This document shows positions 7,278 to 31,593 of a DNA stretch of 32,000 nucleotides, one piece after another. Position 1 is the stretch's first letter. Every line of letters begins with the position of its first letter. The notes beneath the pieces were generated by a model. That model worked only from the letters and a program-made list of their open reading frames with translations, searched no databases and was not told the origin of the DNA. Origin of the DNA: an uncultured Nitrososphaerota archaeon (GTDB lineage Archaea > Korarchaeota > Korarchaeia > Korarchaeales > Korarchaeaceae); NCBI GenBank assembly GCA_964480775.1, contig CAYZRF010000011.1, positions 1-32,000 on the forward strand, in the 5' to 3' direction. A program made the position numbers and the translations under genes.

Positions 7278-7281
7278 CAGA

Positions 7282-11778: not shown

Positions 11779-11779
11779 C

Positions 11780-12595: not shown

Positions 12596-12641
12596 GAGCT
12601 ACACCCACATAATATTAGAAACGGAAAGCGATGCTTTATCA

Positions 12642-13634
12642 TCACCCTTTGATAAACGATAAATCGAATAACTCATCTTCCTCTGGGAGCTCTTCTATTA
12701 TTCCGAGCTGCTTTGCGAACTGAAGGATTTCATAGCAATCCTGAACGTTCACATTATAGTTGAATTCAATCCTTCTACGGGCACTTTCTACTATGGATAC
12801 GTCTAGATTCATTATCTGAGCTATGAGCTCATTTGCCTCTTTTGGGTTCTCATTTATCCAGTCTACTGTATCAATGTAGACCTCAAGGAATTTTCTAAGG
12901 AGATCTGGGTGGTTTTCTATGAAAGAGGTTCTGGCCACCACAACATTCACAGGATATATTCTTCCTTCATGATTTTCTCTCCACCATTGTGCTACATCGA
13001 AAACTATCACGTATTTACCTGGGTAGTTTATTTCTGCTTGAGACGCAAAGGGTTCCCAAGTCATCATTGCATCGAATTCCTTAGACACGAACACGAGTTG
13101 AGGCATATCAGCTGGCGCTATCCCAACCCTTGTGTCGATATCTTTTTGCCAGTCTAGCGGAGGATTCGCCACAACTTTCGTTAACAGTGTCGAGTAAAGC
13201 GTGTGGGTGACTGATCCAATTCGAGGAGTACAAACCGACTTCCCCTTTAGGTCATTAACTGTCTCTATACCCGAATCAGCTCTCGCAATAAGCACGTGTC
13301 CGCCTCCGTTAGCCCCTGCAACGACCTTGAGATCTATTCCTGAAGCAAACCACTTTGTCGAAGGTACTATCCCTAAAAGAGCAATTTGGATCTCTTCTCC
13401 TGAAAAGGCTTCCATTAGCGTTGGACCATCTGGATAAACAATTATCTCCACATTTAGCCCCGCTTGTTCGAAGGATCCTTTGAATTCAGCAATTTTTGGC
13501 GTTATAGTTCCTAAGGCAAGTATCATCCCCACTTTTATAGGCTTTTCCTCCTTAGTGCGCCTTTGAGTTGCTATGAATGCTCCGAGTAAGAGCAAAAGGA
13601 TAATAATTGCCGAAAATACTGCTTTTTTCTCCAT
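12642..13634 (-). CDS. ABC transporter substrate-binding protein, NMT1/THI5-like (SsuA/TauA/ThiY-type)
   Basis: N-terminal membrane anchor/signal (AVFSAIIILLLLLGAFIA), a type-II periplasmic-binding-protein-like body, and the first position in the ABC operon. Confidence 0.65.
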   Translation of the reverse strand: MEKKAVFSAIIILLLLLGAFIATQRRTKEEKPIKVGMILALGTITPKIAEFKGSFEQAGLNVEIIVYPDGPTLMEAFSGEEIQIALLGIVPSTKWFASGIDLKVVAGANGGGHVLIARADSGIETVNDLKGKSVCTPRIGSVTHTLYSTLLTKVVANPPLDWQKDIDTRVGIAPADMPQLVFVSKEFDAMMTWEPFASQAEINYPGKYVIVFDVAQWWRENHEGRIYPVNVVVARTSFIENHPDLLRKFLEVYIDTVDWINENPKEANELIAQIMNLDVSIVESARRRIEFNYNVNVQDCYEILQFAKQLGIIEELPEEDELFDLSFIKG

Positions 13635-13800
13635 CTTTAGATCAAACCTTTTTTCATCAATTACTTAATAATCCTTTCCGTCAAAGAACTTTTTCGTAAC
13701 CATATATGGAAATATAGGGAAGCAATTATTCCATGAAAGGTTATTAATTTTCAAAATAGTATAATTTTATATTGAGATTTGCCTTATTTGGTGATGGAAT

Positions 13801-14328
13801 ATGATGAGCGAAGGAGAGTCGATATTACGTAAGATTGTAGAATCGGATAGGGCGTTTTGTCAAGCATTTTTGGAGTATTTGAAGAAAAATGGAATAAGTA
13901 TAAAGGACTTCAGCAGAATGGCCAATCTACCAACTAGCACGCTGTATAAAATCACCTCTGGGAGGGTTAAGACGATAAGATCAAACACTCTTAGAAAGAT
14001 CATCAAAACGATAAGAGAATTAGAGGAAAAGGAAATAAGAAAGGATGCTATTGCCATAATAACTACCAGAACCGCAATCGAGCTAACGGAAAAAGAGATA
14101 AGCATTGATGGCAAGAAGTACGTGATCCTCGAATATCCAGCAGATTCAATAGAAGAAGAAATAATTCAAGGAATAAGGGCAGAAAAAGCCGGAGCTAAGG
14201 GCATAATTTGCGGTCCAATTGCGGCTACAACGCTGGAAAAGGTTGTTTCCATTCCTATCGCAACGATAAGGTTTGAAGAAGGACCTCTAAGGAACGCCAT
14301 CGATAGGCTCCTAAAAAGGATCACGTAG
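13801..14328 (+). CDS. HTH (XRE-like) transcriptional regulator with uncharacterised C-terminal alpha/beta domain
   Basis: HTH segment ISIKDFSRMANLPTSTLYKITSG. GGTGAT SD at 13790-13795. It is the only plus-strand gene between 5347 and 23868, it is divergent from the ABC operon, and its 3' end overlaps the convergent decarboxylase gene by 8 nt. Confidence 0.55.
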   Translation: MMSEGESILRKIVESDRAFCQAFLEYLKKNGISIKDFSRMANLPTSTLYKITSGRVKTIRSNTLRKIIKTIRELEEKEIRKDAIAIITTRTAIELTEKEISIDGKKYVILEYPADSIEEEIIQGIRAEKAGAKGIICGPIAATTLEKVVSIPIATIRFEEGPLRNAIDRLLKRIT

Positions 14329-15520
14329 TGACGAGCTGTCCTCTTGCTTTTTTGATTGCTTTCATAAATCTTTCCTTAATTTCCGTATTTTCCATAGGAA
14401 TCGTTGGAACCTTTTCGTTTCCAGGTTTTAGTATGGTATGAATGAAGAATGGCCCGTCGTTGTTCAAGCTATGATCCAACGCTTCAATTAGCTTGTCCTG
14501 GTTCTCAGCAATGAGAATGTTTGATCTTGGAATGCCATATGAAACGGCAAGGGCGCTTAAGTTTAGTCCTTCAAATGTATAGATGGGATAGTTTCGTGTC
14601 GATCCATAGACACCATTATCGAGCACTATCAAAATTAAGTTCTTCGGCCTTTGGTCTGCAACAATGGTCAGAGAACCTGGATTCATAAGCAGCCCTCCAT
14701 CTCCCTCAAAACATACAATTTTTTCGCCTATGTCCTCGGTAGTTAGGGCCAAACCAAGTGCTAACATATATGTTTGACCGAGAGACGAAGTCAGGTAGAA
14801 GTTTCGCTCCCTATCCCTTATCTGATAAAGTTCTCTGCTTGGAAGACCTATGTTCGAAACGACGAACTCATCCTTTATCCTCTTCATTACAGTTGATATG
14901 GCCTCATATCTTCTCATTTCTGCTTTAACTTTAATTTCAGGGAAAAAAGTGCCGTTTAATTGTCTAATAATGCTTTTCCACTTTTTCTCCTCAGTCATCA
15001 TCCTTCCAAATTCTGGTCTTATCGTTAATGCAACAGTGTAGCCTTTTTCATATTCTTTCAATAAGTCATCTGCCCTCTCAAGATCAGATCTTTTTTCTAT
15101 GGAACACTGCTTAATTCCAGGCATATCTAAGATTTTTTTCGTTTGTCTTCCCATCGGCTTCTGTGCTCTTATCTTCTCGCCCTCTATCCCTCTGTGGGTA
15201 ATGATGTATAGATTTGGAAACCTGTATGAACCCTCTAGGTGACTGTTTAACACAAGTAGTTGTCCTACCATATTGCCTAGGCCTTGATTCTGAATTATCA
15301 TTGCCGTTTTTCTTCCACCCAAGTAAGCCCCAGCACTTAGTGCTACTCCACTTTCTTCTCTTACAAGAGGTACATGGGTTAGTTCGCCAAAACTTCTAAT
15401 TCTTCTAATCAAATCAACGTTATACGAGCCTGGAAGAGTGGAAAAGAAGCTAAAACCATGTTTTATACACAGTTCAAAGATCTCTTCGTAGATTTCGTGC
15501 AATTTATTCACCTTAAACAA
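14321..15520 (-). CDS. fused ThDP-dependent decarboxylase, sulfopyruvate (ComDE)/phosphonopyruvate decarboxylase family
   Basis: The N-half is ComD-like: REESGVALSAGAYLGGRKTAMIIQNQGLGN and THRGIEGEKIRAQKPMG. The C-half is ComE-like, with the ThDP motif GDGGLLMNPGSL...LDNGVYGSTRN. The start is TTG 15520 or GTG 15511. Confidence 0.7.
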   Translation of the reverse strand: MFKVNKLHEIYEEIFELCIKHGFSFFSTLPGSYNVDLIRRIRSFGELTHVPLVREESGVALSAGAYLGGRKTAMIIQNQGLGNMVGQLLVLNSHLEGSYRFPNLYIITHRGIEGEKIRAQKPMGRQTKKILDMPGIKQCSIEKRSDLERADDLLKEYEKGYTVALTIRPEFGRMMTEEKKWKSIIRQLNGTFFPEIKVKAEMRRYEAISTVMKRIKDEFVVSNIGLPSRELYQIRDRERNFYLTSSLGQTYMLALGLALTTEDIGEKIVCFEGDGGLLMNPGSLTIVADQRPKNLILIVLDNGVYGSTRNYPIYTFEGLNLSALAVSYGIPRSNILIAENQDKLIEALDHSLNNDGPFFIHTILKPGNEKVPTIPMENTEIKERFMKAIKKARGQLVTT

Positions 15521-15558
15521 TAAGTCGCCATTTATCCGACGAACTACTCAGCTTGGGC

Positions 15559-16710
15559 CTATAGGAACAAGTCCATTATAAAAGCACTTATTTTCACCAT
15601 CTCAGGTCCAGGATCTATTAATGAAATGTCAGTTACTGTCTTTTTACTAAAGAATAGCTTGATGAAGCGTTTGAAATTGTCAAGTTTTCCTGGAGCTTCT
15701 AAAATATAATTCATATCATATGGAAAGACCCAAAGGAAGGTTAGGTTCTTTTCATAGTCAAAAACTGGGTCGACATCTCCTTCTAGCGCCATCTTGTATA
15801 ATAGGTAAGGAAAATCTATCCCTGCCTTTATTGAAAGCTCTAAAGTTCCCCAGAATTTTGGATTAATTTCCATTAACCTAGGCTTACCTTCGGCATCCAA
15901 TTTGAACTCTACTTGGGCTAAACCATGCCAATTCAGTTTCTTCATAAGTTTTATAGCCATCTCCCTTAGCTTCTCATCACTTATAGTTTCATTAACGATA
16001 CCGACTCCTCCTCTCGGAGGCCATGTCCAAACTCTTCTTTGAACAAGCGCCGCTCTAGGTTCTCCCTGATTAAAAAGAACGCAAACATCTCTAATTTCTC
16101 CAGGTATGTATTCTTGTATCATAGGAAGCTTTTGTTCTTCAATGAGCGAGTCGCAAGGTAGACTTTCTATCTCCTTGTATTTTTCCAAGAGTTCAGTCTT
16201 TGATCTAACAAGTCTGACCCCCTTATCAACCCCTGAACCTTTCCTTCTCTTTATTATAACGGGATAACTCACTTTCTCGGAGATTTCGAGGACATCCTCT
16301 TTAGACTTTGGAAAATAAGTTTTTGGAACTGGAACACCAACTTCTTCCGCTATTCTCAGTGCTTGTGATTTATCATGTGCCTTTACCAAGGTGTCATAAT
16401 CAGCTACTGGAACGTTTGTGAAGTTCAAGAGTTTATCTTTGTAATAGGAGACTGGCACAGTAGTATCAACGCCCACGGGAAATAACAAGTCGATTTTTTC
16501 CTCTTTGATTATTTTCAGCAGACTATTGACAAATTTAATTGCGTTTTTTTTGGGAGGATAGTATATCCTTCGACTCCTGCAATATCTTGAATAAAACGAT
16601 AGAGCAACCTTTTTGTGCGAAGCCGTCGTGATTTTGATACCCCTTTTCCCTAAGGACCGGACAGCTGCTAGAGTGTTCTTGTAACTAGCATTTGTGATCA
16701 GTACGCTCAT
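15559..16710 (-). CDS. ATP-grasp family ligase (uncharacterised specificity)
   Basis: Pre-ATP-grasp N-domain, then YPVIIKRRKGSGVDKGVRLV, MIQEYIPGEIRDVCVL and AQVEFKLDAEGKPRLMEINPKFWG (Mg/ATP-binding E-x-N). It lies 38 nt upstream of the decarboxylase. Confidence 0.65.
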   Translation of the reverse strand: MSVLITNASYKNTLAAVRSLGKRGIKITTASHKKVALSFYSRYCRSRRIYYPPKKNAIKFVNSLLKIIKEEKIDLLFPVGVDTTVPVSYYKDKLLNFTNVPVADYDTLVKAHDKSQALRIAEEVGVPVPKTYFPKSKEDVLEISEKVSYPVIIKRRKGSGVDKGVRLVRSKTELLEKYKEIESLPCDSLIEEQKLPMIQEYIPGEIRDVCVLFNQGEPRAALVQRRVWTWPPRGGVGIVNETISDEKLREMAIKLMKKLNWHGLAQVEFKLDAEGKPRLMEINPKFWGTLELSIKAGIDFPYLLYKMALEGDVDPVFDYEKNLTFLWVFPYDMNYILEAPGKLDNFKRFIKLFFSKKTVTDISLIDPGPEMVKISAFIMDLFL

Positions 16711-19141: not shown

Positions 19142-19900
19142 TTAGATGTTTAACATAAAAAATCTCCTTAAATCTTTCAATAAACCGAAATCATAAGCTC
19201 CTCCTCTTTCATCGACAACAACAACTCTAAAGGAAGAGAGCTCAATGCCTTTCAGTAGGGGAGAAAAGGGAAGAGGCTTAATGCTAACATCGGCTCCTGG
19301 TGCGAGAGGTGAAATAGCTGGTATGATGATGAAGTGCGAGTTTCCCACTTTTCCAGCTAAATGACATTTGAATTTGGTTTTAGCACCTATTTCATCCCTA
19401 AAAGTTACCGCTGGATGCTCATGTCCCATGATTATAACCCTTGCTCTTTTGAGAACCTCATTTGGAACTTCTTTGTGGCCATGAGCAAAAAAATAATCCT
19501 TGATGAGAAGGTAAGGATCATAAAAAGGTACTTCCCTTCTTTTTAGTATGGGAATTAGGTAATTATCATGGTTTCCTCTGACAACGCGAAGTTCTACTCT
19601 CTCTTGAAGTGTATCGAGTAGGTCAAGCACCTCCACCCATTCTTGCCTACTTGCTCCACCAAACTCGTGTTTCACGTCTCCAACGATGATTAAAAGCTCA
19701 GGATCGAGCTCCTCCAAAAGATATAGTATCTTTTGCTTTATTTTTGGATATTGGCTCTTGGGAAGGTGTATTCCCGATTCAAGAAGAGCCTCCTCATAGC
19801 CAATATGAAGATCAGCTATCGCCAAGGCGTTGATTTCATTAATGAAAACCCCGTAGGGAACTGCTTCAACCCCTTCTACTATTTCCATCCTATGTAGCAT
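19142..19900 (-). CDS. calcineurin-like metallophosphoesterase, Lhr-associated MPE type
   Basis: Motifs IADLHIGYE, VGDVKHEF, GNHDN, GHEHP. The start overlaps the Lhr 3' end by 11 nt. Confidence 0.8.
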   Translation of the reverse strand: MLHRMEIVEGVEAVPYGVFINEINALAIADLHIGYEEALLESGIHLPKSQYPKIKQKILYLLEELDPELLIIVGDVKHEFGGASRQEWVEVLDLLDTLQERVELRVVRGNHDNYLIPILKRREVPFYDPYLLIKDYFFAHGHKEVPNEVLKRARVIIMGHEHPAVTFRDEIGAKTKFKCHLAGKVGNSHFIIIPAISPLAPGADVSIKPLPFSPLLKGIELSSFRVVVVDERGGAYDFGLLKDLRRFFMLNI

Positions 19901-22538
19901 AAGATCTCCTCTCTATAATCTTCATAACCATGTGATGAAGCCTTGCAAGCATCTCCCTCTTACTCTCCATTAGGACGATGTCACTCATGCCCTGAAGCAC
20001 TATGTTATGGGAGAAGGGAGACGGAACAGTTGTTGGCCTAAGCATGACTACTTGTATATCTCCTTTGCGTATCTTCCTAAGCACTTCCATAGCGTTCCTT
20101 ACATCCATAAAGTCCTCCAAGATCTCCCTAAATGTCTCCTTTACCATCGGGAACTCCCTTAATTCCCTAACTGCTCCTAAGATCTTCTTTGAGTTAAACT
20201 GCCTCCTTCTTATACTCGTTTCTATTCCTTTGTAACGTCTGAGAAGCATCAAACCCCTTGTTGCCACATGTCTGAACCTTCTTTCAAAGAGTTCAGTCCT
20301 CTCTATGGCTTTCTTAAGTATAGAAGGTAAGTCTTCTGGCTTTATATCCATTAAGTAGGAGTGAGAAACCTGAACGCCAGGAGGATATACGACGGCAAAT
20401 CCATGGTCTCCAACGATTATCCCTAAGTTCCTCCTCACCCTCCTTCCAGCTAGATAGGCAACGGCTCTTGAGAGGGCATCGTTAACCCGTCTCCCGAAGA
20501 GAGCGTGATAGACCACATACTTCTTGCCATCTTCATCAACGAAGACCTCAACCAAAAGTACCCTATCTGAAGGATATTTTCTTACCCCTCTGGATTTCAG
20601 GTACAGCCACTCCTCTGTAAAGTATTGGAGAATTGCGTTTGCTATGTTATGATCTGCTTTGCAATTCTTCATTATCCAATTCACAGTTTTATGGCCCTTA
20701 ACTCCCTTCTCCAGCCACTCGAACATCTTTCCCCTGAACCTTGAGATCTCCAGGGCCAGATCGTAGCTTAAAGGCAGCATCTCGCTGAACCAGCTGGGAA
20801 CAGTTGGTTTCTCATCGTAGGCAGGCATGACCACAGCTGTAAAGCCCCTCACCGTCTTGACGAACTCGTAAACCTTTCCTCCAAGGACAAACCTATCTCC
20901 AGGCATCAATCGCTCAAGGAACTCCTCCTCTATGCTGCCAAGCTTCTTACCACCCAGGGTTCTTACCCTTACCCTTACCTCATCAGGAATCGTACCGACG
21001 TTTTGGGAGTAAATGGCCCTTGCAAGCTTGCCCCTCCTTCCGAAAACCCCCTCCTCGGGGTCATACCATATCTTCCCGTAAACCTTGTACATCTCCATCT
21101 GGGAGTAGGCGCCAGACAGGTATCTGAGCACTCTTTCAAAGTCCTTCCTATCGAGATCTTTGTATGGATATGCCCTTCTAACGAGTTCATATGCTTCTTC
21201 TACGTTCCACTTCTGCTCAATTGCCATGCCAGCTATATGCTGTGCCAGAACGTCTAGGGCATTTCTTGGCATGTGGGCCCTGTCCAAGTGCCCTGACATC
21301 GCCTCCTTCAGCATTATTGCGACTTCAACAGCATCGTCCCTATCTGAGCAGATGAAGACTCCTTTGCTCACCTCCCCAAGCCTGTGACCAGCCCTCCCAA
21401 CCCTCTGTATCGCTCGAGTTACCGATTTGGGGGAGCCAAGCTGAACAACGAGATCTATGTAACCTATGTCTATCCCTAGTTCCAAGCTTGTTGAGCTCAC
21501 GATTGCCCTCAACTCTCCGCTCTTAAGCTTCTCCTCCACGTCATGCCTTACGCCCCTTGAAAGCGAGCCATGATGGGCAGCAACATCGTCCTTCTCTATC
21601 TCCTCCACGTAAAGTGGGAGGAGCTGTCTCAGCCTAAATGCAACCCTTTCAGCCCCGCTTCTGGTGTTGGTGAAGATGAGAGTTGTCCTGTGTTTCCTAA
21701 TTAGGTCGCAGAGGAACTTGTACATCTCCTCGTTTATCACATTAAAAGGGGTGTAAATCAGATCCGAGACAGGAGCCATCACCTGCAGATCCATTTTCTT
21801 GGCGTAGGTCGTGTCGACGATGAGGCAATCCCTTGGTTTCCCGTCTTTATAGCCAACTAAGAATTTTGCAACCTCTTCAAGCGGGTTTATCGTTGCAGAA
21901 AGGCCTATCCTTACGAAAGGTCTGCCTACAAGGTGCTCCAGTCTCTCTAGAGAGAGACTAAGGTGAACGCCCCTCTTGCTTTCTACCAAGCTGTGTATCT
22001 CGTCCACTATGACCCATCTAAGATTCCTGAACTTCTCCCTAAACTTAGGAGCTACTAACGTTATGGCTAGGGTTTCTGGGGTGGTGATGAGTATGTGAGG
22101 GGGCTTCCTCAGCATCTTCTGCCTCTCACTCGTGCTAGTATCCCCCGTCCTCACAGCATGCCTTATCTCAGGAATTTCAATCCCCTTCTTCTTCGCAAGC
22201 TCACGTATCTCTTCCAACGGCACCTTCAGGTTTCTGTAGATGTCATTGTCCAGAGCTCTTAGAGGGGAGACGTAGACGGCATACACGAAATCTTCCAGCT
22301 CACCTTTCCGAGCCATAGAAAGGAGCTCGCTTATTATTCCGATAAAAGCGGTCAGAGTTTTTCCTGAGCCAGTAGGGCTTGAGACAAGCACATTATTCCC
22401 TTCATGTATCGGAATTACTGCATACCTCTGAGGGGGAGTCAAGTCCTTGAAGTGGGATTCGAACCACTCGGAGACGAGCGGATCGAGCACAGAGAGCACT
22501 TCTTCCTTAGTATACTGTCTGGTTGCCCTCCTTATCAA
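19890..22538 (-). CDS. lhr: Lhr-type (Lhr-core) SF2 DEAD/DEAH-box helicase
   Basis: Motif I SSPTGSGKT, motif II VIVDEIHSL, motif III GLSATI, motif VI QRVGRAGH, then the long WH/DEAD_assoc-like C-terminal half typical of Lhr. The start is TTG 22538 (stop two codons upstream), with an alternative GTG 13 codons in. Confidence 0.85.
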   Translation of the reverse strand: MIRRATRQYTKEEVLSVLDPLVSEWFESHFKDLTPPQRYAVIPIHEGNNVLVSSPTGSGKTLTAFIGIISELLSMARKGELEDFVYAVYVSPLRALDNDIYRNLKVPLEEIRELAKKKGIEIPEIRHAVRTGDTSTSERQKMLRKPPHILITTPETLAITLVAPKFREKFRNLRWVIVDEIHSLVESKRGVHLSLSLERLEHLVGRPFVRIGLSATINPLEEVAKFLVGYKDGKPRDCLIVDTTYAKKMDLQVMAPVSDLIYTPFNVINEEMYKFLCDLIRKHRTTLIFTNTRSGAERVAFRLRQLLPLYVEEIEKDDVAAHHGSLSRGVRHDVEEKLKSGELRAIVSSTSLELGIDIGYIDLVVQLGSPKSVTRAIQRVGRAGHRLGEVSKGVFICSDRDDAVEVAIMLKEAMSGHLDRAHMPRNALDVLAQHIAGMAIEQKWNVEEAYELVRRAYPYKDLDRKDFERVLRYLSGAYSQMEMYKVYGKIWYDPEEGVFGRRGKLARAIYSQNVGTIPDEVRVRVRTLGGKKLGSIEEEFLERLMPGDRFVLGGKVYEFVKTVRGFTAVVMPAYDEKPTVPSWFSEMLPLSYDLALEISRFRGKMFEWLEKGVKGHKTVNWIMKNCKADHNIANAILQYFTEEWLYLKSRGVRKYPSDRVLLVEVFVDEDGKKYVVYHALFGRRVNDALSRAVAYLAGRRVRRNLGIIVGDHGFAVVYPPGVQVSHSYLMDIKPEDLPSILKKAIERTELFERRFRHVATRGLMLLRRYKGIETSIRRRQFNSKKILGAVRELREFPMVKETFREILEDFMDVRNAMEVLRKIRKGDIQVVMLRPTTVPSPFSHNIVLQGMSDIVLMESKREMLARLHHMVMKIIERRSYAT

Positions 22539-22584: not shown

Positions 22585-23868
22585 TCACTTTAACAGCTCG
22601 GACTCGTACTTTTTCAGGTACTCTACCGCATCAGAGATGTTTCTGAACAGGGATTTCACTTCTTCCACGTCCTTTGCCGATATCTTGTCCCTTCCCTCGG
22701 CCCTTGCCCTGACACCAGCTATACTCAATATCTGTACAGCGTGTCGGAGCGAGGTAGCACCTCCTATCTCCTTTAGAAGGGCTAAGGCCTCGTCATCAGC
22801 CTTGATATCCTCTTCCTTCATTCTTATCCTTAGAATCTCCTCTATCTCGTCCGGCTTATACTTCTCAGTGGTTATGATGACCGTCCTGTCAAGCAGGTCT
22901 AGAGGAAGTCCGAAGGGCGCCTTCTCATTTGTTCCCCTTATTGTTGTTATGCCCCTGTTCGTCGCCATGACTATTATCGGCACTAGCTCCCCTTCCATGG
23001 CCCTCGTAAGGAAGCTCAAAGCCTCGATGTCCATCATGTGGACATTGTCTATGAAAAGGACCCCTGGTATTATCTCGGCCCTCCTTTGCTCAACCCACTC
23101 CTTGACCTGCTGGTCAACGGCGGCCCTTACCTCAGGGTCGATCTCCTTCTCCGCTGTTCCTCCGAAAAGCAGTGAGAAGAATCCACCACCCCTCCTCTTC
23201 ATGAAGATCTCGTCTAGGTCTGCTAGGGTGAGGGTATAGACGAACTCCTTCTTCTTAAGGACGGGACCGCTGGGCCTTGGAACTACCTCCGCCTCTCCCA
23301 CATCGTACCTCTTTCCTACTTTCTCAGAGACGCCAACCCTAGATATCCTTCCAGTATCGGCGTCTATCTGAATTACGTCGCCTTCCCTTATCCCGTTTTG
23401 CACGACGGTGTAGGCAACTGACTGTCCAGCTTCGATTGTCTTCTTCTCATCTTTCGTCTCAAGTGTTATCCTCACGCTTTCAGGGACCTTCTGATAAGGG
23501 TTGTAGGGGTTTGAGGTCCACCTGACGTGTATATCCGTTACCTCGCCCTCATAGATATCTCTCATTTCCCTTATCCTCACGCCTATTGCCTGTCTTATTG
23601 CATCCATGAGCACATCAGTCTTCTTCCTTTCTGCGCTGTATATCTCAGAACCAGTTATAGCTATGAAAGGCACATCTCTTCCAAGCTCTCTTGCCATTGC
23701 TACCGCAATCGCAGTTTTTCCCGTTCCTGGAGGGCCAGCTAGCAAGACTGCCTTCCCTGCGAGCTTCCCCTCTTTTGCCATGTTAACTATGAGGCCAGCT
23801 GCCTCCCTAGCCCTTGTCTGTCCGACCATCCCGTCAGCTACCCTGAGTGCCTTCATGTTCTCATCCAA
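22585..23868 (-). CDS. TIP49 / RuvB-like (Pontin-Reptin family) AAA+ ATPase with OB-fold domain II insertion
   Basis: End-to-end collinearity with eukaryotic RUVBL1/2: VGQTRAREAAG, Walker A LLAGPPGTGKT, the domain II insert, Walker B region VLFIDNVHMMD, sensor 1 MATNRG, PLDLLDR and sensor 2 TSLRHAVQ. The coordinates follow the ORF track (TTG 23868). The conserved motif RRIGAHSHIRGLGLD is encoded in frame upstream, up to 23952, so the true 5' end is probably 23937-23952. Confidence 0.85.
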   Translation of the reverse strand: MDENMKALRVADGMVGQTRAREAAGLIVNMAKEGKLAGKAVLLAGPPGTGKTAIAVAMARELGRDVPFIAITGSEIYSAERKKTDVLMDAIRQAIGVRIREMRDIYEGEVTDIHVRWTSNPYNPYQKVPESVRITLETKDEKKTIEAGQSVAYTVVQNGIREGDVIQIDADTGRISRVGVSEKVGKRYDVGEAEVVPRPSGPVLKKKEFVYTLTLADLDEIFMKRRGGGFFSLLFGGTAEKEIDPEVRAAVDQQVKEWVEQRRAEIIPGVLFIDNVHMMDIEALSFLTRAMEGELVPIIVMATNRGITTIRGTNEKAPFGLPLDLLDRTVIITTEKYKPDEIEEILRIRMKEEDIKADDEALALLKEIGGATSLRHAVQILSIAGVRARAEGRDKISAKDVEEVKSLFRNISDAVEYLKKYESELLK

Positions 23869-24047: not shown

Positions 24048-24629
24048 ATGGATTATGAGGAACTTATTACTCCAAAGGAGGCAAGGGCAATACTAAGGGT
24101 TAGCAACAAGACTCTTTGGTCGTGGCATAAAAAAGGGATAATCAGGACCGTTAGACTCCCAAGTGGAAGATTGCGTTACTACAAGAGCGATATAGAAGCC
24201 ATTGTAAGGGGGAAGAAGAGGGAAAATCTGTTAGAAAAGCTAAGAAACGCTCTTGTACATGAAGAAAACGTGTTAATAGCATATCTATACGGATCAAGAG
24301 CCAGGGGAGATTTTCAAGAGGAAAGCGATGTAGACGTTGCCGTTCTAGTAAAGGATCCACCAACTCCAGAGGAAAATCCATTCTATGAGACCGAGCTTTC
24401 GCTTAGGCTAAGTAAAGCAGTTGGAAAAGATGTAGAGGTCAGACTCCTTAACGATAAGCCCCTAATTTTCCTTTGCCAAGTTCTAAAACATGGAAAACTA
24501 ATAATTTCCAAGGATGAAAAGACTAGAGTAAAATTCGAAGCATATACTTTGGACAGATGCTTTGATTTCAAGCCAATCCTCGATTCATATAACAGGATGA
24601 GAGAAAGGAGGATAGAGGCATGGAAATAG
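24048..24629 (+). CDS. MNT-type nucleotidyltransferase antitoxin fused to an N-terminal excisionase/MerR-like HTH
   Basis: N-terminus LITPKEARAILRVSNKTLWSWHKKGIIRTVRLPSGRLRYYKSDIEAIV (HTH_17-like). Minimal NTase motif LYGSRARGDFQEESDVDVAVLV. 10-nt overlap with the downstream HEPN gene. Confidence 0.8.
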   Translation: MDYEELITPKEARAILRVSNKTLWSWHKKGIIRTVRLPSGRLRYYKSDIEAIVRGKKRENLLEKLRNALVHEENVLIAYLYGSRARGDFQEESDVDVAVLVKDPPTPEENPFYETELSLRLSKAVGKDVEVRLLNDKPLIFLCQVLKHGKLIISKDEKTRVKFEAYTLDRCFDFKPILDSYNRMRERRIEAWK

Positions 24630-25045
24630 ATAGAGAACTGATTCACCTCAGGATAGACTTAATTGAGAGAAACCTGAAGTTGTTGGAAGAGATAGCATCC
24701 GAAGGATACGAAAGCTTCGAGAGGAGTTACAGGGACATAATGGCATCCAAACACGCCTTGCTAGAGTCGATAGAAGCTTGTATTGATATCGCTAACCACA
24801 TAATAGCTGTAAAGAGGTATAGAAGGCCAAAAGATTACGTCGATATATTCAAGATCTTGGAAGAAGAGAAGATAATAGACAAGGACCTTTCCGAAAGGCT
24901 ACAAAGGATGGCTAAGTTCAGAAACATCTTAGTCCACAGATATACAGAGATAGAAACTCGTAAGCTTTATACCATAATGACTAAGGATGTCAAAGACATT
25001 GTTTCCTTCGTGAAGACCATACTTGAATTGATTAGAAGAAAGTAA
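24620..25045 (+). CDS. HEPN (DUF86) toxin of a HEPN/MNT module
   Basis: R-x4-H motif in KFRNILVHRY. About 140 aa, all-helical, and cognate to the upstream MNT gene. Confidence 0.8.
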   Translation: MEIDRELIHLRIDLIERNLKLLEEIASEGYESFERSYRDIMASKHALLESIEACIDIANHIIAVKRYRRPKDYVDIFKILEEEKIIDKDLSERLQRMAKFRNILVHRYTEIETRKLYTIMTKDVKDIVSFVKTILELIRRK

Positions 25046-26396: not shown

Positions 26397-26894
26397 TTAA
26401 TCAAGGCTCAAACCCATCTTGTTTATGGCAACGTAAACGACATTTGAGAAGATTATGCCTGAGACTGCTTGGATCACGTTACCAGGTAACTCGACCGCAG
26501 CAGCCCCTACTCCGTACAAATATGACTCGACGAGGAAATAGCCGATAACCATCTCAAAAGCTCCCAAGCAAGTCCCTATCAGGATGAAAAACTTCTTCCT
26601 CTTCGATATCTCACCGGCTATAGCCCCCTCTATTCCCTTGATGATAAGGGTCCAAGGAGCCCAGTGAGGGAAGCCGCCTATGATATCTGCTAGGGCAGAG
26701 CCTATTCCACCAGCTGCTCCTCCGACTACTGGCCCGAGAAGAATCGCAAACAAGAGGACCATGGTGTCGCCCAAGTTAATATAACCCCTTGTTGGGGCTA
26801 TGGGCACTCTAATCATCAGGGTGGCAACAGCAACCAGAGCTGCTCCAACTGCTAAGGCAGCTGCCTTCTTAGATGTATCTTGTTGCATCGCCAT
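26397..26894 (-). CDS. ECF-transporter S-component-like membrane protein (PF07155-like), substrate unknown
   Basis: About five hydrophobic helices. GYINLGDTMVLLFAILLGPVVGGAAGGIGSALADIIGG..HWAPWTLIIKGIEG matches the pattern of ECF S components. No EcfA/EcfT genes are present in the window. Confidence 0.55.
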   Translation of the reverse strand: MAMQQDTSKKAAALAVGAALVAVATLMIRVPIAPTRGYINLGDTMVLLFAILLGPVVGGAAGGIGSALADIIGGFPHWAPWTLIIKGIEGAIAGEISKRKKFFILIGTCLGAFEMVIGYFLVESYLYGVGAAAVELPGNVIQAVSGIIFSNVVYVAINKMGLSLD

Positions 26895-26908: not shown

Positions 26909-26924
26909 TACTTATATATCAGTA
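26909..26924. promoter_or_regulatory. TATA-centred imperfect palindrome TACTTATATATCAGTA in the 50-bp divergent intergenic region
   Basis: 14 of 16 positions are self-complementary. The element lies 21-36 nt from ATG 26945 (+) and 15-30 nt from ATG 26894 (-), so it would serve both promoters. It is a candidate operator for the adjacent wHTH protein. Confidence 0.3.
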
Positions 26925-26944
26925 TTTTAGCTTGAATATTTGAG

Positions 26945-28381
26945 ATGGCCTATGTAAGCGCCCTCTATTGTGAGAGATGTGGGGCATCTTACACTCCAGA
27001 AACCCTTAGAAATAAGTGCGAGAAATGCAAAGGTCCTTTAAACGTTGGATATGACATAAATAGACTTAAAGAGGCATCTGTTAAGCACAATTGGATGTCT
27101 AGAGCTGGAGGAATATGGAAATACTGGGAACTCCTGCCAAGCTCTCCAAGGGGCGCAATTTCTTTAGGAGAAGGGAACACCAGGCTTCATAGGGCCAAAA
27201 AAATCGGACTTAAAACAGGACTAAAGGATCTGTTCATAAAGGACGAGACTACAAATCCAACTGGATCCTTCTTGGATAGGGGAGCCTCGGTTCTCACAAC
27301 AAAGTTGATTGAACATGGATTTAGAGGAGTTCAAGGTCACTTCAAGGGAAATCTTGGGGCGTCATTGGCGGCTTACTCTGCCCGAGCAGGACTAAAATGC
27401 ACCATAAAACTTGATGAGAACGTGGACTTGGCTAAGCTTTATCAGATGATAGCCTATGGTGCCGAAATAATACTACCGAACAGCAAATCTTCACTTGAAT
27501 CTTCTGACCTAATTTATACAGCAGATAATGCCGATCCTTTTCTGATAGAGGGGCACAAAACGATAGCTTTTGAGGTGCTTCAAGCTCTCAACTGGAGGGA
27601 ACCGTACTGCATTGTCGTTCCAGTGGGAAGCGGAGGCTTGGTTTGGTCTCTTTGGAAGGGTCTTAAAGAACTTAAAGAGATTGGAATTCTAGAAGATAAT
27701 GATATTCGGCTCATTGGCGTCCAATCATATGCATGTTCGCCGATTGCTGACGAAATACTTGGAGAACATGAGGTTAAAGCAAACAAAAAGCCGCATATAG
27801 CAAGAGATCTAGTTTTCTACCTGCCTGAGAGGAGATTTGAGGCTATAGAAGCCATAAAAAAGAGTAAAGGATGGGCCTACGTCGTCTCCGAGGAAGATAT
27901 GTTGACAGCTGCGAGAACCCTAGCAAAAGAAGAGGGCATCTTCGCAGAACCAGCAGCAGCGTCAACCATTGCTTGCGTCGAAAAAATGGTAGAGAGTGGA
28001 AATTTGGATCCATCAGACCAGGTAGTTTGCGTAATCACAGGATCTGGTCTGAAAGATCCTGTCGTTGCTATGAGGGAATTGGAGAGGAACATAGCTTTAG
28101 AGAGATTCATAAAGGGAGAGATCCTAGGGAGGTCCTTAATTGGAAGAACAAAGAAGAGAATCCTGAATGTGCTTAAAGGTGGACCTTCTCACGCCTATGG
28201 CATATGGACTAAGCTCAAAGAGGAAGGTATCAAGGTAAGCGCCTCCGCAGTATATCAGCAGATATCAGACCTTGAGGAGAAGGGATTAATAGCTAGAACC
28301 GAGGAAGAACTAGTTTCTGGGAGGATAAGAATAATCTATTCCTTAACAGAAAAAGGGAAGGAATTGGTGGATCTTTTATAG
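26945..28381 (+). CDS. threonine-synthase-fold (PLP fold-type II) protein lacking the catalytic lysine, with N-terminal zinc ribbon and C-terminal PadR-like winged HTH
   Basis: CERCG..x15..CEKCKG zinc ribbon. ThrC-like core (LGEGNTRL, FIKDETTNPTGSFLDRGAS, PVGSGGL, EEGIFAEPAAAS, VITGSGLKDP). Leu (TTG 27272-27274) sits where the PLP Lys should be. The C-terminal ~75 aa read ILNVLKGGPSHAYGIWTKL...VYQQISDLEEKGLI...RIIYSLTEKGKELV. Confidence 0.75.
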   Translation: MAYVSALYCERCGASYTPETLRNKCEKCKGPLNVGYDINRLKEASVKHNWMSRAGGIWKYWELLPSSPRGAISLGEGNTRLHRAKKIGLKTGLKDLFIKDETTNPTGSFLDRGASVLTTKLIEHGFRGVQGHFKGNLGASLAAYSARAGLKCTIKLDENVDLAKLYQMIAYGAEIILPNSKSSLESSDLIYTADNADPFLIEGHKTIAFEVLQALNWREPYCIVVPVGSGGLVWSLWKGLKELKEIGILEDNDIRLIGVQSYACSPIADEILGEHEVKANKKPHIARDLVFYLPERRFEAIEAIKKSKGWAYVVSEEDMLTAARTLAKEEGIFAEPAAASTIACVEKMVESGNLDPSDQVVCVITGSGLKDPVVAMRELERNIALERFIKGEILGRSLIGRTKKRILNVLKGGPSHAYGIWTKLKEEGIKVSASAVYQQISDLEEKGLIARTEEELVSGRIRIIYSLTEKGKELVDLL

Positions 28382-28390
28382 GAATTCAGA

Positions 28391-28762
28391 TTAATTTGAG
28401 GGTTTTTCAAGGTCATAATCCGACCAGGGTATGAGGGGATTGAGACTACCACTCAAATAAGCCCTTATTGCATCTTTGAGGGTCTTGCAGTCTCCCTCTA
28501 AAGCTACGACCCCATTCTCAAGCATAAAAGTTACCGCATCATCATCCAACGGGTTCGCAAGGATAGCATCTGGTTGTAGCTCTAGGAACACCTCTGGCAG
28601 GAACCTCGGATGTAAGTCAGAGGTATCGACGAATCCAATTTCCTCCAAGGCACCAGTATCACCTAGCTCTATTACTGCAAGCTGTTTTATTTCCATTGTC
28701 TTGGAGGCTATTTCTGAATGGAAGCCCATTGGCCTCGATATAGGAATTATCAATCTAACCAT
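28391..28762 (-). CDS. small cytoplasmic protein, weakly NifX/NifB-C-terminal-like (MTH1175-type alpha/beta fold)
   Basis: The pattern LIIPIS....AVIEL.D.G......PEVFLELQPDAILA....DAV.FMLENGV...G.CKTLKDAIRAYLSGSL resembles the dinitrogenase FeMo-cofactor-biosynthesis domain family, but the usual HFG motif is absent. It lies 47 nt downstream of the 927-aa gene. Confidence 0.3.
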   Translation of the reverse strand: MVRLIIPISRPMGFHSEIASKTMEIKQLAVIELGDTGALEEIGFVDTSDLHPRFLPEVFLELQPDAILANPLDDDAVTFMLENGVVALEGDCKTLKDAIRAYLSGSLNPLIPWSDYDLEKPSN

Positions 28763-28809: not shown

Positions 28810-31593
28810 TTACTCCTCCAATAGTATTAACTCATCACCTTTAATTTCTAAGTTCATTTCAGGGTGAAGCTTTGCGAATCTAACCAGAGCAATGAACCTT
28901 AGGTCTTCGGGTAGTGTTGTAAGGAGAGAAGCGGGTGCTTTACCCCACAGGCTCAGCATCATCTTTATCCTCCCTTCTATCTTGCTCCACGATCCTATGA
29001 GTTCTTCGAGGGAGTCAAGGCGTCTATCAAGAGAGATCATGTTGGATTCTAAACTGTCTAAAAGCTGTTTCGCATAATCATATTTTCCATCAGAGATCTC
29101 CATCCTAACATCATATAGAAGTTTGTGCAGAGATTCCACCTTGTTAACTAAACCAGGAAATCCCTGTTCTTCGTAACTCTTTGCCCTTTGGAGTAAGGAA
29201 GCTAGTTTCCCGGCTACTTGGTTCATCCTTGCCTCAAGCTCCTTGTACACGGTAGGAGCCTCTACCGCCACTTCAGGCTTCTCTTCTTCTGCTGGAGGAG
29301 AAGGAGCAACGGGAACTATTTCTATTTCTGCTGGTTTTGGTTTAATTATTTCTATCTCTTCTGGTTTTATTTCTTCCATGACGGATGGAGGAGTTGGAGC
29401 TGGTTTCTCCTTTCTTCTTCCACTTATCACCTTAAGGACAACAGCAAGAGGAATGCCAGCCATGAGGGCTAGTACCACCAAGCGAGAGCCCCACAGCCCT
29501 ATGTACGGCTCGAAAAAGGTTGTAATTGGTGCGAGAGCCTTCCAAAAGCTCTCTATCGGGCTTACTGGGGTTGGTGTTGGAGTAGGAGAGGCAGTTGGTG
29601 AGGGAGACGTAATTCCAACCCCTACAGAAATCGATACCGACATCTGATCTAGGATTTCGTCCTCGCGGAATACCTTGACCGATATCTCGGAGGAGCCCTT
29701 TTCGAGGGCTTTAAGGGGCAAAAGAATTTCCTTATCTTCTCCAGCTTTTAGAGGCCCCACTTCAACAGAGCTCTTGTTGGTAATATCCGATGAAGCCTCT
29801 ATCTTAAGCACAGCGTTATCAACGAGTCTGTTCTTTACTCTCACCTTTAGGCTTATGGTCTCTCCCTGATTTACGCTAACCATACTTGGAGAAACGCCTT
29901 CCAACAACTCGCCTTGGACACAAGTCCCTTTGATTGCTGTCTCACCAATTTCTGTTCCGTTTAGTTTTGCGACAAGCCTAATGTTAACATCTCCTGGGAA
30001 GGTAGGGATTGTCTGAATGGAGAACGACTTTTCAACCCCAGCATCAACCCATCCAAGAGAAACGGTCTTGCTTATTATTCCCTCTCCAGACAGGACGAGT
30101 TCCAACTGTCCGCTTACGTTAGAAGATACTTTACCAGAGACTTCAAACGTCTCTCCCACTGTCAAAGTTCCTAGCTCAGATGTAGAAAATGTGGCCGAGC
30201 CTACTACCTTCGGGGTAACTGCTCCCGTTTCTTTATATGGGAGTTCAATTCTATGTACCCAAGATACGTTCCCATCCTCCATTAGAACGTTTAGTTCCAC
30301 GTAAGAGAACGGTTTAGAGAGGGTAAACTTGAAACTTGTCTTTCGGGTTCTCACTAGCGGAGTTACAGAAGGAAGTACCTCGAGCCATAGGAGATCACCT
30401 TCTGGAGATCTTACATCTATTGTCGGAACTATCGTGTCATTGGAATAAAGCGAAACAACTCCTTCTACGAACACCGTGAGGTTTTCCATGGCATTGAGTT
30501 TTTGAACGACGAAACCTACCCTGGGAAGTTTTATGCTCATTAAAGATCCGCTTGAATTGAGAAATACCAAACTCCAACGCTCTGGATCTAGTCTAACCCT
30601 AAAGAGAGGCTTAAACACCTCATATTCAGGAATATAGGAGGTTTCATCGACATTCAGGTCATATAAGATGATCCCATCTTTTCTACTCCAAAAGACGAGG
30701 GCGTTACCCGCTATCATCGGTTGGTCATAGGCGTTCTTTGCCAATCTGGGGAATCTATCGATTTCTCCTTTAGCTATGTCTATGATATTTAAGAAGCCTC
30801 CCGTAGACATAACATAGGCGAGACCTCTTCTACAGGGAATCTCTCCAGCGACAACGTTTCCTCCTCTTAGCGTTATCGATCCTGAAAGGATCTCTCCAGT
30901 CGCAGGGTTGACCAAGTATATGTCCGACTCAACACCAGCTAGAAGGTATCCTGCCCCGATTCCTAGCGCGACAACCTCTGATGAGAATTCTTGGTCCCAT
31001 ATGACTTCTCCGCCTTCTGTTCCAAGAGCCATAAGGTGCTTTCCACAGCAAACGTAAGCAACATCTTCCTCAACCAAAAAGACCTCTATAGAACCAGGCA
31101 GATCTACTGTCCAGACCTCTGCTCCATTATTTTTATCAAATGCGGTGAGCTTCCCACCTTCAACAGGCACTAATATCAGATCTCCTGCTGGAACTAAGCT
31201 GGAGGTGTAGCTTCTATCAGAATCTCCTGGTATTTGAGTGTAGTACGCCCTTCTCCCAGTCATAAGGTCAAAAGCCATGAATAAGTTGGCGGTTCTTTCG
31301 CCTGTTGTAACGTAAACTCTGCGCCAATCAGCCCAAATATCTGGAATGGCAACTCCACCAAGAGGTGTTTCCCACAGAACTTCGCCTGTGTTAGCATCAA
31401 CAGCGGCTAGTATGGTCCCACCCATTCTTATTGTGAGGATCTTGTCCCTAGCAACAAAGGGAGAGGATCTTTTGATCGTTGGAGCTAGATTTCCAACCTC
31501 TATCGGCTCTATGGTGTAGTAGTACGGCAGTGCTTGGACCAATGTTGTGAACACGAAGATAAGCATTAAGATGATAAGTAGAGGACGCTTCAT
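28810..31593 (-). CDS. type I membrane protein: signal peptide, PQQ-like beta-propeller, CARDB/Ig-like domains, T/P stalk, TM helix, ~230-aa cytoplasmic helical domain
   Basis: N-terminus MKRPLLIILMLIFVFTTLVQA. PQQ-type repeats (TGEVLWETPLGG, NGAEVWTVDLPG, GGEVIWDQEF, ATGEILSGS). CARDB-like GETISLKVRVKNRLVDNAVLKIE. Stalk SPSPTASPTPTPTPVSP. TM helix LVVLALMAGIPLAVVLKVI followed by RRKEK. The tail then has a P/E-rich repeat and predicted coiled-coil helices. Confidence 0.65.
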   Translation of the reverse strand: MKRPLLIILMLIFVFTTLVQALPYYYTIEPIEVGNLAPTIKRSSPFVARDKILTIRMGGTILAAVDANTGEVLWETPLGGVAIPDIWADWRRVYVTTGERTANLFMAFDLMTGRRAYYTQIPGDSDRSYTSSLVPAGDLILVPVEGGKLTAFDKNNGAEVWTVDLPGSIEVFLVEEDVAYVCCGKHLMALGTEGGEVIWDQEFSSEVVALGIGAGYLLAGVESDIYLVNPATGEILSGSITLRGGNVVAGEIPCRRGLAYVMSTGGFLNIIDIAKGEIDRFPRLAKNAYDQPMIAGNALVFWSRKDGIILYDLNVDETSYIPEYEVFKPLFRVRLDPERWSLVFLNSSGSLMSIKLPRVGFVVQKLNAMENLTVFVEGVVSLYSNDTIVPTIDVRSPEGDLLWLEVLPSVTPLVRTRKTSFKFTLSKPFSYVELNVLMEDGNVSWVHRIELPYKETGAVTPKVVGSATFSTSELGTLTVGETFEVSGKVSSNVSGQLELVLSGEGIISKTVSLGWVDAGVEKSFSIQTIPTFPGDVNIRLVAKLNGTEIGETAIKGTCVQGELLEGVSPSMVSVNQGETISLKVRVKNRLVDNAVLKIEASSDITNKSSVEVGPLKAGEDKEILLPLKALEKGSSEISVKVFREDEILDQMSVSISVGVGITSPSPTASPTPTPTPVSPIESFWKALAPITTFFEPYIGLWGSRLVVLALMAGIPLAVVLKVISGRRKEKPAPTPPSVMEEIKPEEIEIIKPKPAEIEIVPVAPSPPAEEEKPEVAVEAPTVYKELEARMNQVAGKLASLLQRAKSYEEQGFPGLVNKVESLHKLLYDVRMEISDGKYDYAKQLLDSLESNMISLDRRLDSLEELIGSWSKIEGRIKMMLSLWGKAPASLLTTLPEDLRFIALVRFAKLHPEMNLEIKGDELILLEE

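Follow-up and report, generated by a model that had tools for sequence, protein, structure and literature searches.

A lysine-less threonine-synthase-like protein fused to a PadR winged helix as a candidate vitamin B6-responsive regulator of uncultured archaea

The stretch of DNA considered here, which we will call the window, comprises 32,000 nucleotides (positions 1 to 32,000 of contig CAYZRF010000011.1, assembly GCA_964480775.1) from an uncultured Nitrososphaerota archaeon that GTDB places in the Korarchaeaceae. Our subject is a gene at 26945–28381 on its forward strand, whose 478-residue product joins a zinc-ribbon-like element and a threonine synthase (ThrC)-like domain, of the fold-type II class of pyridoxal 5'-phosphate (PLP) enzymes, to a C-terminal PadR-type winged helix-turn-helix (wHTH). 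The position of the Schiff-base lysine is occupied by leucine, and the gene lies head to head with a gene for the S component of an energy-coupling factor (ECF) transporter, with a palindromic element in the spacer between them. For brevity, we refer to the protein as the regulator, in keeping with the candidate role for which we argue below. The features of the locus are as follows:

26397–26894 (−): divergent ECF-transporter S component, 165 residues, the likely regulated target (PF07155; PDB entry 4HZU chain S)
26909–26924 (no strand): candidate operator, a 16-bp near-palindrome, TACTTATATATCAGTA, over a shared TATA box (palindrome and 12-mer)
26931–26939 (+): second unit of the direct repeat, CTTGAATAT, 20 nt downstream of CTTATATAT (26911–26919); it lies after the TATA box and before the start codon of the regulator
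26945–28381 (+): regulator gene, encoding the Cys4 ribbon, the lysine-less ThrC-like PLP-fold domain, a linker and the PadR wHTH (open reading frame (ORF) of 478 residues, Pfam, AlphaFold2, Foldseek)
26954–27052 (+): N-terminal Cys4 zinc-ribbon-like element, residues ~4–36, with C9, C12, C25 and C28 as the predicted metal site (cysteine conservation, model)
27158–28042 (+): fold-type II PLP-fold (PALP) domain, residues 72–366 (PF00291)
27272–27274 (+): Leu110, codon TTG, at the Schiff-base lysine position (alignment to solved ThrC)
27341–27352 (+): Asn loop FKGN, residues 133–136, equivalent to STGN; Ser133 lost, Lys134 clade-specific, Asn136 kept
27620–27637 (+): glycine-rich phosphate loop PVGSGG, residues 226–231 (family conservation)
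27806–27808 (+): Asp288, on the TIATAI-equivalent strand, an acidic position acquired by the fused proteins (column comparison)
28037–28054 (+): TGSGLK motif, residues 365–370 (family conservation)
28055–28144 (+): flexible linker, residues 371–400 (pLDDT, the predicted local distance difference test, 52–79, and below 50 at residues 391–397)
28145–28375 (+): C-terminal PadR-type wHTH, residues 401–477 (PF03551, model, Foldseek)

The composite architecture, which a first-pass annotation had proposed from the letters of the sequence, is borne out by profile, alignment and modelling evidence. In Pfam, PALP (PF00291) matches residues 72–366 over the full profile (positions 1–295) with an E value of 4.3e-64 and 217.1 bits against a cutoff of 35, and PadR (PF03551) matches residues 406–473 (nucleotides ~28160–28363; profile positions 1–71 of 75) with an E value of 1.2e-13 and 51.3 bits against 27; neither a GntR nor an Aminotran_1_2 domain was found in the regulator. 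The full-length AlphaFold2 model, calculated from a 104-sequence alignment, has a pLDDT of 90.9 and a predicted template modelling score of 0.82, and is made up of a ThrC-like body, in which the Cys4 element forms two beta hairpins (pLDDT 92–97), a disordered linker spanning residues 371–400, and a confident domain of H-H-H-E-E-H topology at residues 401–477 (pLDDT 93–97), the tail reaching a pLDDT of 93.9 when modelled alone. Submitted to Foldseek, the body returns ThrC structures as its best 21 matches, with E values down to 1e-27 and template modelling (TM) scores, normalized to the target, of 0.71–0.84; the regulator compared with solved ThrC gives TM scores of 0.6/0.83. The top 50 matches of the tail are nearly all PadR-family regulators (TM 0.73–0.84, root mean square deviation 1.5–2 Å), among them Rv3488, LmrR, CdPadR and the Bacillus subtilis PadR–DNA complex 5X11. 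The four cysteines form a CxxC-12-CxxC pattern and are each kept in 88–92% of the fused proteins and 91–94% of their unfused relatives described below.

The altered Schiff-base motif could be placed with precision. NPTGSF-L-DRG occupies residues 104–113, and in HMMER alignments to three solved threonine synthases (2D1F, 6CGQ and 2ZSJ; 33–35% identity), Leu110 falls exactly on the Schiff-base lysine, as the first-pass annotation had read it. The same alignments set HFKGN on aSTGN, PVGSGG on PVGNAGN and DNADPFL on NSVNPYR, in agreement with its reading of a changed Asn loop beside a preserved phosphate loop. The TTG codon, which it had argued to be no single-base error, is not an assembly error, because close orthologues have either leucine (those at 86, 80, and 79% identity) or methionine (those at 76 and 68%) at this position.

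The loss of the lysine proves to be a property of the fused family, so that an architecture that had been implied to be peculiar to one gene instead defines a large group of proteins. In a search of 5.8 billion proteins, the best 120 homologues are all PALP–PadR fusions and none has a lysine at the site, the residues there being I, L, M, or V in 113, serine in one, and threonine in one, with five falling outside the motif scan. To these 120 we added the 50%-identity representatives from an exhaustive HMMER search, giving 263 tabulated proteins, 188 of which have a PadR tail and 75 of which do not. Among the former, the site is lysine in two, arginine in seven, and I, L, M, or V in 168 (89% hydrophobic). 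The survey of whether substitution and fusion co-occur, which the first-pass annotation had proposed, thus gave a clear answer: the lysine is absent from 186 of the 188 fused proteins and present in 70 of the 75 unfused relatives, and at least three of the five unfused exceptions are short fragments.

When alignment columns of the fused proteins are set against those of the closest lysine-bearing relatives without the fusion, what has been kept can be told from what has changed. Conserved in both groups alike are the phosphate loop (P226, G228, and G230), Asn136, the Thr365-Gly-x-Gly-Leu-Lys motif, and the Cys4 ribbon, the frequencies within the fused family being 92% for N136, 96% for P226, 97% for G228, 100% for G230, 98% for T365, 96% for G366, and 98% for both G368 and K370. 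The threonine of TGSGLK contacts the pyridine N1 in fold-type II enzymes and, as judged by alignment, the ThrC-like domain retains the residues predicted to hold the cofactor phosphate, ring nitrogen, and 3'-oxygen. The fused group has lost Lys110 and Ser133 and has gained Leu137, Tyr166, and Asp288. At the Leu110 column, isoleucine (46%), leucine (28%), and valine (8%) stand against 100% lysine in the nearest unfused relatives; Ser133, present in 94% of the unfused relatives, is variable; and position 288 is aspartate in 83% and glutamate in 10% of the fused proteins, as against glycine, alanine, or serine in the unfused. The columns that bind substrate in ThrC (STGNT, here FKGNL, and NSxNPxR, here DNADPFL) are not conserved in the fused family. 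Of the FKGN loop, the reading itself stood, and its lysine turned out to be a feature of the window's clade, Lys134 being found in 37 of 185 fused members (20%), with TGN kept by most. Against the orthologues at 80 and 78% identity, the PALP domain shows proportions of nonsynonymous differences (pN) of 0.09–0.13 and of synonymous differences (pS) of 0.66–0.88, with the synonymous sites saturated; both domains are under purifying selection, with the constraint on the PALP domain no weaker than that on the wHTH. Strong constraint combined with the loss of the lysine therefore argues that the enzyme-like domain is functional, but not as a lysine-dependent PLP enzyme.

The family has not escaped the curated databases, and what the first-pass annotation missed is that it is widespread, already modelled, and mislabelled. 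The best NCBIfam model of the regulator, NF004170 (PRK05638, "threonine synthase"), aligns with residues 8–476, inclusive of the wHTH, at 305 bits against a cutoff of 421, and the regulator also falls below the other ThrC cutoffs (TIGR00260, 159.1 against 167.1; PRK08197, 253.7 against 303). The cysteate synthase model TIGR03844 gives 41.7 bits against 324.9, its match being confined to residues 302–370. Some members of the family do pass: P0038, P0075, and P0008 score 240, 214, and 177 bits, over the TIGR00260 cutoff of 167.1, P0038 also exceeds that of PRK08197, and the Thermococcales protein P0188, with arginine at the lysine site, reaches 799.6 bits with NF004170, far over its cutoff. The source names of the homologues are uniformly "threonine synthase", and the databases thus mislabel the fused family as such.

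A side branch of the fused family, of the PRK05638 type and including a protein of the Thermococcales genome CP015193, has arginine or, rarely, lysine at the site. The fused proteins that keep lysine are P0171 and P0185, and those with arginine are P0160, P0161, P0175, P0183, P0184, P0188, and P0243. The Thermococcales type shares with the regulator the full-length architecture, wHTH included, and the absence of the lysine; it differs in its arginine (rarely lysine) and in its gene context, which consists of aCPSF1 and an amino-acid kinase with no ECF S component. This branch may represent an intermediate or a functionally distinct group.

Turning to the neighbouring genes, the divergent partner of the regulator in the window matches PF07155 with an E value of 9e-40 (136.9 bits against 26.7), and its only relative in the PDB is chain S of 4HZU, the Lactobacillus brevis (L. 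brevis) protein HmpT/PdxU2 (E 2e-14, residues 11–145). The HmpT family was originally predicted to carry hydroxymethylpyrimidine (HMP), and the substrate extracted from the L. brevis protein, now PdxU2, was pyridoxamine (PMC4860826). Of the six conserved pocket residues of HmpT (E41, H84, Q87, Y120, N140, and Q143), 21 archaeal homologues share three unchanged (Y120, N140, and Q143) and have aspartate or glutamate for E41, lysine for H84, and glutamate for Q87. W76 is aromatic and S136 is replaced by glutamate, and the changes at 84, 87, and 136 make for a more acidic pocket. No genes for the ECF A or T components were found in the 32-kb window.

A scan of the genome collection gave 42 loci, all from uncultured archaea except L039, which encodes an unfused bacterial ThrC-like protein. 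The archaeal loci belong to Thermoproteota, Nitrososphaeria, Bathyarchaeia, Brockarchaeota, Methanomethylicota, and Culexmicrobium, and the genomes nearest to the window regulator are uncultured metagenome-assembled genomes of Thermoproteota/Nitrososphaerota. An ECF S component stands head to head with the regulator in about 36 of 46 loci (those with I-, L-, V-, or M-type regulators and enough upstream DNA), a count that is descriptive only, because the loci are phylogenetically related; the arrangement recurs in independently fetched contexts and holds in most loci from Thermoproteota, Bathyarchaeia, Nitrososphaeria, Brockarchaeota, and Methanomethylicota, down to 35% regulator identity. In two separate lineages, represented by L023 and by L173/L174, the place of the S component as divergent partner is taken by pdxS-pdxT, the PLP synthase operon (in L023, SOR_SNZ at 320 bits and SNO at 165 bits). 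PLP-dependent aminotransferases lie near the regulator in several loci, and the related loci show no conserved amino-acid or sulfonate gene beside it.

The pair also keeps other company. An AIRS/AIRS_C protein of ~330–350 residues, related to ThiL and HypE, adjoins the S component–regulator pair in at least 19 loci, including L014, L016, L031 (5914–6951), L165, L167, and L178, and in L014 its gene takes the divergent position opposite the regulator. It scores below all NCBIfam cutoffs, with 66.5 bits for ThiL (cutoff 184) and 104 bits for HypE (cutoff 252), and its identification as ThiL was rejected; both it and the linked S component are candidate participants in vitamin salvage by archaea. 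Proteins combining an HTH with ThiN (ThiR-like, ~310 residues), or ThiDN proteins (~450–470 residues), occur beside the pair in seven loci (L004, L012, L014, L016, L025, L035, and L041), and a ThiT (Thia_YuaJ) S component does so in L165 (6527–7042). Radical SAM proteins near the regulator in L003/L005, L168, L171, and L175–L177 were considered as a family-wide partner and set aside, being mutually non-homologous. In several lineages the S-component gene is called at 280–314 residues rather than ~165–175 (L166, 3974–4918; L170, 4047–4886; L175, 3011–3919), the extra ~120 residues having no Pfam match and being either a real extension or the product of an over-called start; L166 also has an ECF T gene (CbiQ) and duplicated ABC ATPase genes 2 kb away.

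The spacer DNA carries an element specific to these loci. In the window, the TACTTATATATCAGTA palindrome lies in the 50-bp spacer of the pair, with the first of two repeat units inside it, and its center stands 28.5 nt from each of two start codons, the ATG of the regulator and the second ATG in the transporter ORF, a distance that would be expected of one shared TATA box driving two leaderless transcripts. The 12-mer core CYTATATATMRG occurs once in the window, against 0.02 occurrences expected; it is common to the CCTATATATAGG palindrome of other clades and is found upstream of the regulator in many related loci. The spacers of Nitrososphaeria, Bathyarchaeia, and Brockarchaeota carry ATATATAAG-N7-CCTAYATAT(A/C)GG, and a regular expression for the right half of this element has 23 matches in 570 kb, 19 of them immediately upstream of a regulator and one more upstream of an ECF-S gene detached from the regulator (L012). 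A position weight matrix (PWM) trained on 19 sites, applied to 655 kb, found no site scoring 14 or more other than the regulator-upstream sites of untrained loci (L165, L167, L170, L015, L019, L025, L034, and L041) and the L012 ECF-S promoter; in the same 655 kb, no thiC, thi4, or thiD promoter has the motif. Both pdxS–regulator spacers do have it. In the clade of the window, the element takes the form of a direct repeat, CTTAWATAT-N11-CTTRWATAT, with 13 matches on both strands of the 655 kb, of which 12 lie exactly upstream of a regulator of this clade, even in genomes of 62–65% GC.

The spacing between the halves of the motif is fixed and the distance to the start codon varies. A bound protein is favored, because the element is exclusive to these loci, is constant in its internal spacing, and travels with the ECF-S gene; the alternative of two generic divergent promoters is disfavored, given that the pattern and the PWM match almost only regulator and ECF-S promoters in 570–655 kb. 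Promoter and operator functions are inseparable by computation, as the element is itself TATA-like. A scan of metagenome contigs with ATATATAAGN7CCTAYATAT returned at least 120 AT-rich chance matches, with a regulator or S component in none of the matches listed, and an Rfam scan of the window identified no RNA family and no riboswitch. In L175–L177, the bipartite motif is present in full a second time, as TATATTTAAG-N6-CCTATATATAGG at ~6596–6626, upstream of a gene for a 319-residue radical SAM protein (5606–6562, reverse strand), which, at 1.1 kb downstream of the regulator, is a candidate extra member of the regulon in that lineage.

The fused protein is best explained, in our view, as a transcription factor whose main body is a defunct threonine-synthase-like enzyme. 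The proposal of the first-pass annotation that a non-catalytic effector domain of ThrC fold is coupled to a DNA-binding domain gains support from the co-occurrence of fusion and lysine loss, the wHTH model, the selection on both domains, the divergent vitamin-gene locus, and the spacer motif. As for its ligands, a non-covalently bound B6 vitamer suits the gene context, while the O-phospho- and sulfo-amino acids also put forward find no such genes in the neighborhood and no conserved residues for a substrate phosphate. By analogy with a bacterial system, we regard it as rather probable that the fused protein is an archaeal counterpart of PdxR, namely a non-covalent B6-vitamer sensor and repressor, although it has the standing of a candidate only.

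The analogy can be made explicit. Bacterial PdxR binds the pdxST–pdxR spacer, and the regulons comprise pdxST, pdxK, the ECF S component pdxU, and PLP enzymes, the MocR regulators being reported as absent from Archaea (PMC5320631). PdxR belongs, with GabR and TauR, to the MocR subfamily of GntR, and like it the archaeal protein reuses a PLP-enzyme fold as the effector domain of a wHTH regulator and is encoded divergently from B6 genes with which it shares a motif-bearing spacer, these being an ECF S component in most loci and pdxST in two lineages; the likeness is one of function and not of homology. MocR proteins have a C-terminal domain of the fold-type I aminotransferases, an N-terminal GntR wHTH, and an intact Lys–PLP aldimine, whereas the archaeal family is ThrC-like, of fold-type II, devoid of the lysine, and equipped with a C-terminal PadR wHTH. 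With ThrC of the TIGR00260 and PRK08197 type, which has an N-terminal Cys4 ribbon, the regulator has in common the fold, the domain order, the ribbon, the phosphate loop, the asparagine, and the N1-contacting threonine; it differs in lacking the Schiff-base lysine, the serine of the Asn loop, a conserved substrate-phosphate motif, and a threonine-pathway gene context, and in possessing the additional PadR domain. The tail displays the signature of PadR regulators such as B. subtilis PadR, LmrR, and Rv3488 (HGY.IW, VYQHL..LE..GLI, and R.YY.LT.KG) together with their fold and a palindromic candidate operator. In canonical PadR proteins an N-terminal wHTH precedes a dimerizing helix or domain, while in the regulator the wHTH is C-terminal (401–477) and dimerization would fall to the ThrC-like domain. 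Archaea also have regulators of comparable logic in ThiR (HTH plus ThiN) and RbkR (wHTH plus riboflavin kinase), in which an enzyme fold from a vitamin pathway joined to an HTH controls the genes for synthesis or uptake of that vitamin; the present family differs in its folds and in that its enzyme of origin, threonine synthase, lies outside the pathway that it would regulate.

The mechanism we envisage begins with the ThrC-fold domain as a pocket in which a phosphorylated B6 vitamer, be it PLP, pyridoxamine phosphate (PMP), or pyridoxine phosphate (PNP), would be held non-covalently, with the hydrophobic residue at 110 and the newly acquired Asp288 reshaping the C4' side. By homology, Asp288 would lie near the cofactor ring, since in ThrC structures the TIATAI strand packs against the cofactor. 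The protein would dimerize as ThrC does, and binding of the vitamer would elicit a domain closure of the ThrC type that places the two wHTHs on the palindrome covering the shared TATA box, so that TBP and TFB would be blocked and both the transporter gene and the regulator's own gene repressed. When B6 is scarce, the site would be freed and uptake induced or, where the partner is pdxS-pdxT, synthesis.

Several points weigh against this proposal. Adjacency to pdxST is limited to two of about 46 loci; thiamine genes stand beside the pair in eight loci, and the AIRS-family protein in at least 19; the conservation of the spacer element may partly reflect a core promoter and not an operator; the Lys134 of the window's clade could still reach the aldehyde of the cofactor from the Asn loop; and the direction of control, that is, repressor or activator, with the ligand as co-repressor or inducer, is purely our inference. 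The most serious competitor, though in our judgment an unlikely one, and one that the first-pass annotation had overlooked along with the vitamin-homeostasis context as a whole, retains the architecture and the DNA-level mechanism and replaces the ligand with HMP phosphate (HMP-P) or HMP diphosphate (HMP-PP), the S component importing HMP or a related pyrimidine. These ligands are isosteric with PLP and PMP and without the aldehyde, and a lysine-less pocket with an added Asp288 would suit a 4-amino pyrimidine. The ThiR-like or ThiDN proteins of seven loci, the ThiT of L165, the AIRS-family neighbor with its similarity to ThiL (66 bits), and the membership of the S component in a family first named HmpT (PMC4860826) all speak in the same direction. 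What counts against HMP is that the divergent partner with the motif in two lineages is pdxS-pdxT and not a thi gene, and that no thiC, thi4, or thiD promoter in the DNA scanned has the motif. In addition, the AIRS protein is under every ThiL cutoff, and the closest solved S component yielded pyridoxamine and not HMP (PMC4860826).

Of the other explanations, an amino-acid or sulfonate sensor, an enzyme working through Lys134, and an artefact appear to us progressively less likely. That the ThrC-like domain senses an analogue of amino-acid type (O-phosphohomoserine, phosphoserine, threonine, or cysteate) and controls the metabolism of amino acids or sulfonates would accord with the descent of the fold from threonine synthase and with the sulfate-activation genes, thiamine pyrophosphate (TPP) decarboxylase, and sulfonate-type ABC system that lie in the window 11–20 kb away; we nevertheless hold it to be quite improbable, considering that the Asn loop no longer has its serine for binding the substrate carboxylate, that NSxNPxR reads DNADPFL and is not conserved in the family, that the cysteate synthase model gives 41.7 bits against its cutoff of 324.9, that neighboring amino-acid or sulfonate genes are not conserved, and that the distant sulfur genes are absent from related loci. 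There is a similarly slight chance that the protein retains enzyme activity, alone or alongside a regulatory role in the manner of BirA or RbkR, using PLP through Lys134 or as an external aldimine only, as the intact cofactor-binding residues, the position of Lys134 in the active-site loop of the window's clade, and the canonical lysine of the fused relatives P0171 and P0185 would allow; in opposition stand the rarity of Lys134 (20% of the family, with most members having no replacement lysine), the hydrophobic residue at the canonical site in 89% of the fused proteins, the loss of conservation among substrate-binding residues, and the scores under all the curated ThrC cutoffs. A variant restricted to the window's clade, which we rate as improbable and yet slightly ahead of the two foregoing readings, is that the lysine has been relocated, Lys134 meeting PLP from the other side of the active site to form an aldimine. 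The protein would then be either a sensor that holds PLP covalently or a cryptic enzyme-regulator in which an incoming amine, for example pyridoxamine or an amino acid, switches DNA binding by transaldimination; if true, this would be a second, independent wiring of PLP chemistry to transcription. The probability that the gene is an artefact or in decay, with an error at the lysine codon or a chance fusion of two ORFs, is close to nil, as hundreds of independent assemblies show the same class of substitution and the same fusion, purifying selection acts on both domains, and the full-length model is confident.

Other genes of the window merit brief mention. Overlapping by 10 nt, the ORFs at 24048–24629 (+) and 24620–25045 (+) form a toxin–antitoxin pair of the MNT/HepT type, the first having HTH_17 and Pol-beta nucleotidyltransferase domains and the second being a HepT-like RNase, and the pair is conserved in the related loci L001, L002, and L038. 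The gene at 22585–23868 (−) encodes a TIP49/RuvBL-like AAA+ ATPase (PF06068, 436 bits), a family best known in eukaryotes, and adjoins a gene for an Lhr-type helicase (19890–22538). At 5347–8430 (−) and 10993–16710 (−), 11–20 kb from the regulator, is a possible sulfonate-metabolism island that is absent from related loci; its genes encode the sulfate-activation enzymes ATP sulfurylase (7282–8430) and APS kinase (5347–5886), as well as a nucleotide pyrophosphatase, an ABC system whose binding protein is NMT1/THI5-like (10993–13634), a 398-residue TPP enzyme (14321–15520), and an ATP-grasp protein (15559–16710). Downstream of the regulator, the gene at 28810–31593 (−) encodes a 927-residue protein with PQQ-like beta-propeller and CARDB domains, probably a surface protein, conserved at 64–69% in L001 and L002, where it is accompanied, as in the window, by a conserved 123-residue ORF (28391–28762) with no Pfam match.

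In the literature searchable without subscription, we found no description of a ThrC–PadR regulator, of such a pseudoenzyme, or of an archaeal B6 regulator, and to our knowledge none of the last kind is known. A vitamin-responsive regulator derived from an enzyme fold is in itself a familiar kind of protein, of which PdxR is an example; what is new is the combination of a fold-type II ThrC with a C-terminal PadR domain, the loss of the aldimine lysine, and the distribution in Archaea, which extends over Thermoproteota, Bathyarchaeia, Nitrososphaeria (the ammonia oxidizers), Brockarchaeota, Methanomethylicota, and at least one member labelled Odinarchaeia. As long as the family is listed as threonine synthase, its mislabelling can lead metabolic reconstructions of uncultured archaea astray where threonine biosynthesis is concerned. 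With a defined protein, a candidate operator, and target genes, the fused family offers a testable candidate for B6 regulation in archaea. If the proposal is true, it would be a case of convergent evolution in which a PLP-enzyme fold has been recruited twice as a B6 sensor, as fold-type I with GntR in bacteria and as fold-type II with PadR in archaea, and, since the aldimine lysine has been lost in the archaeal version, sensing there would be non-covalent.

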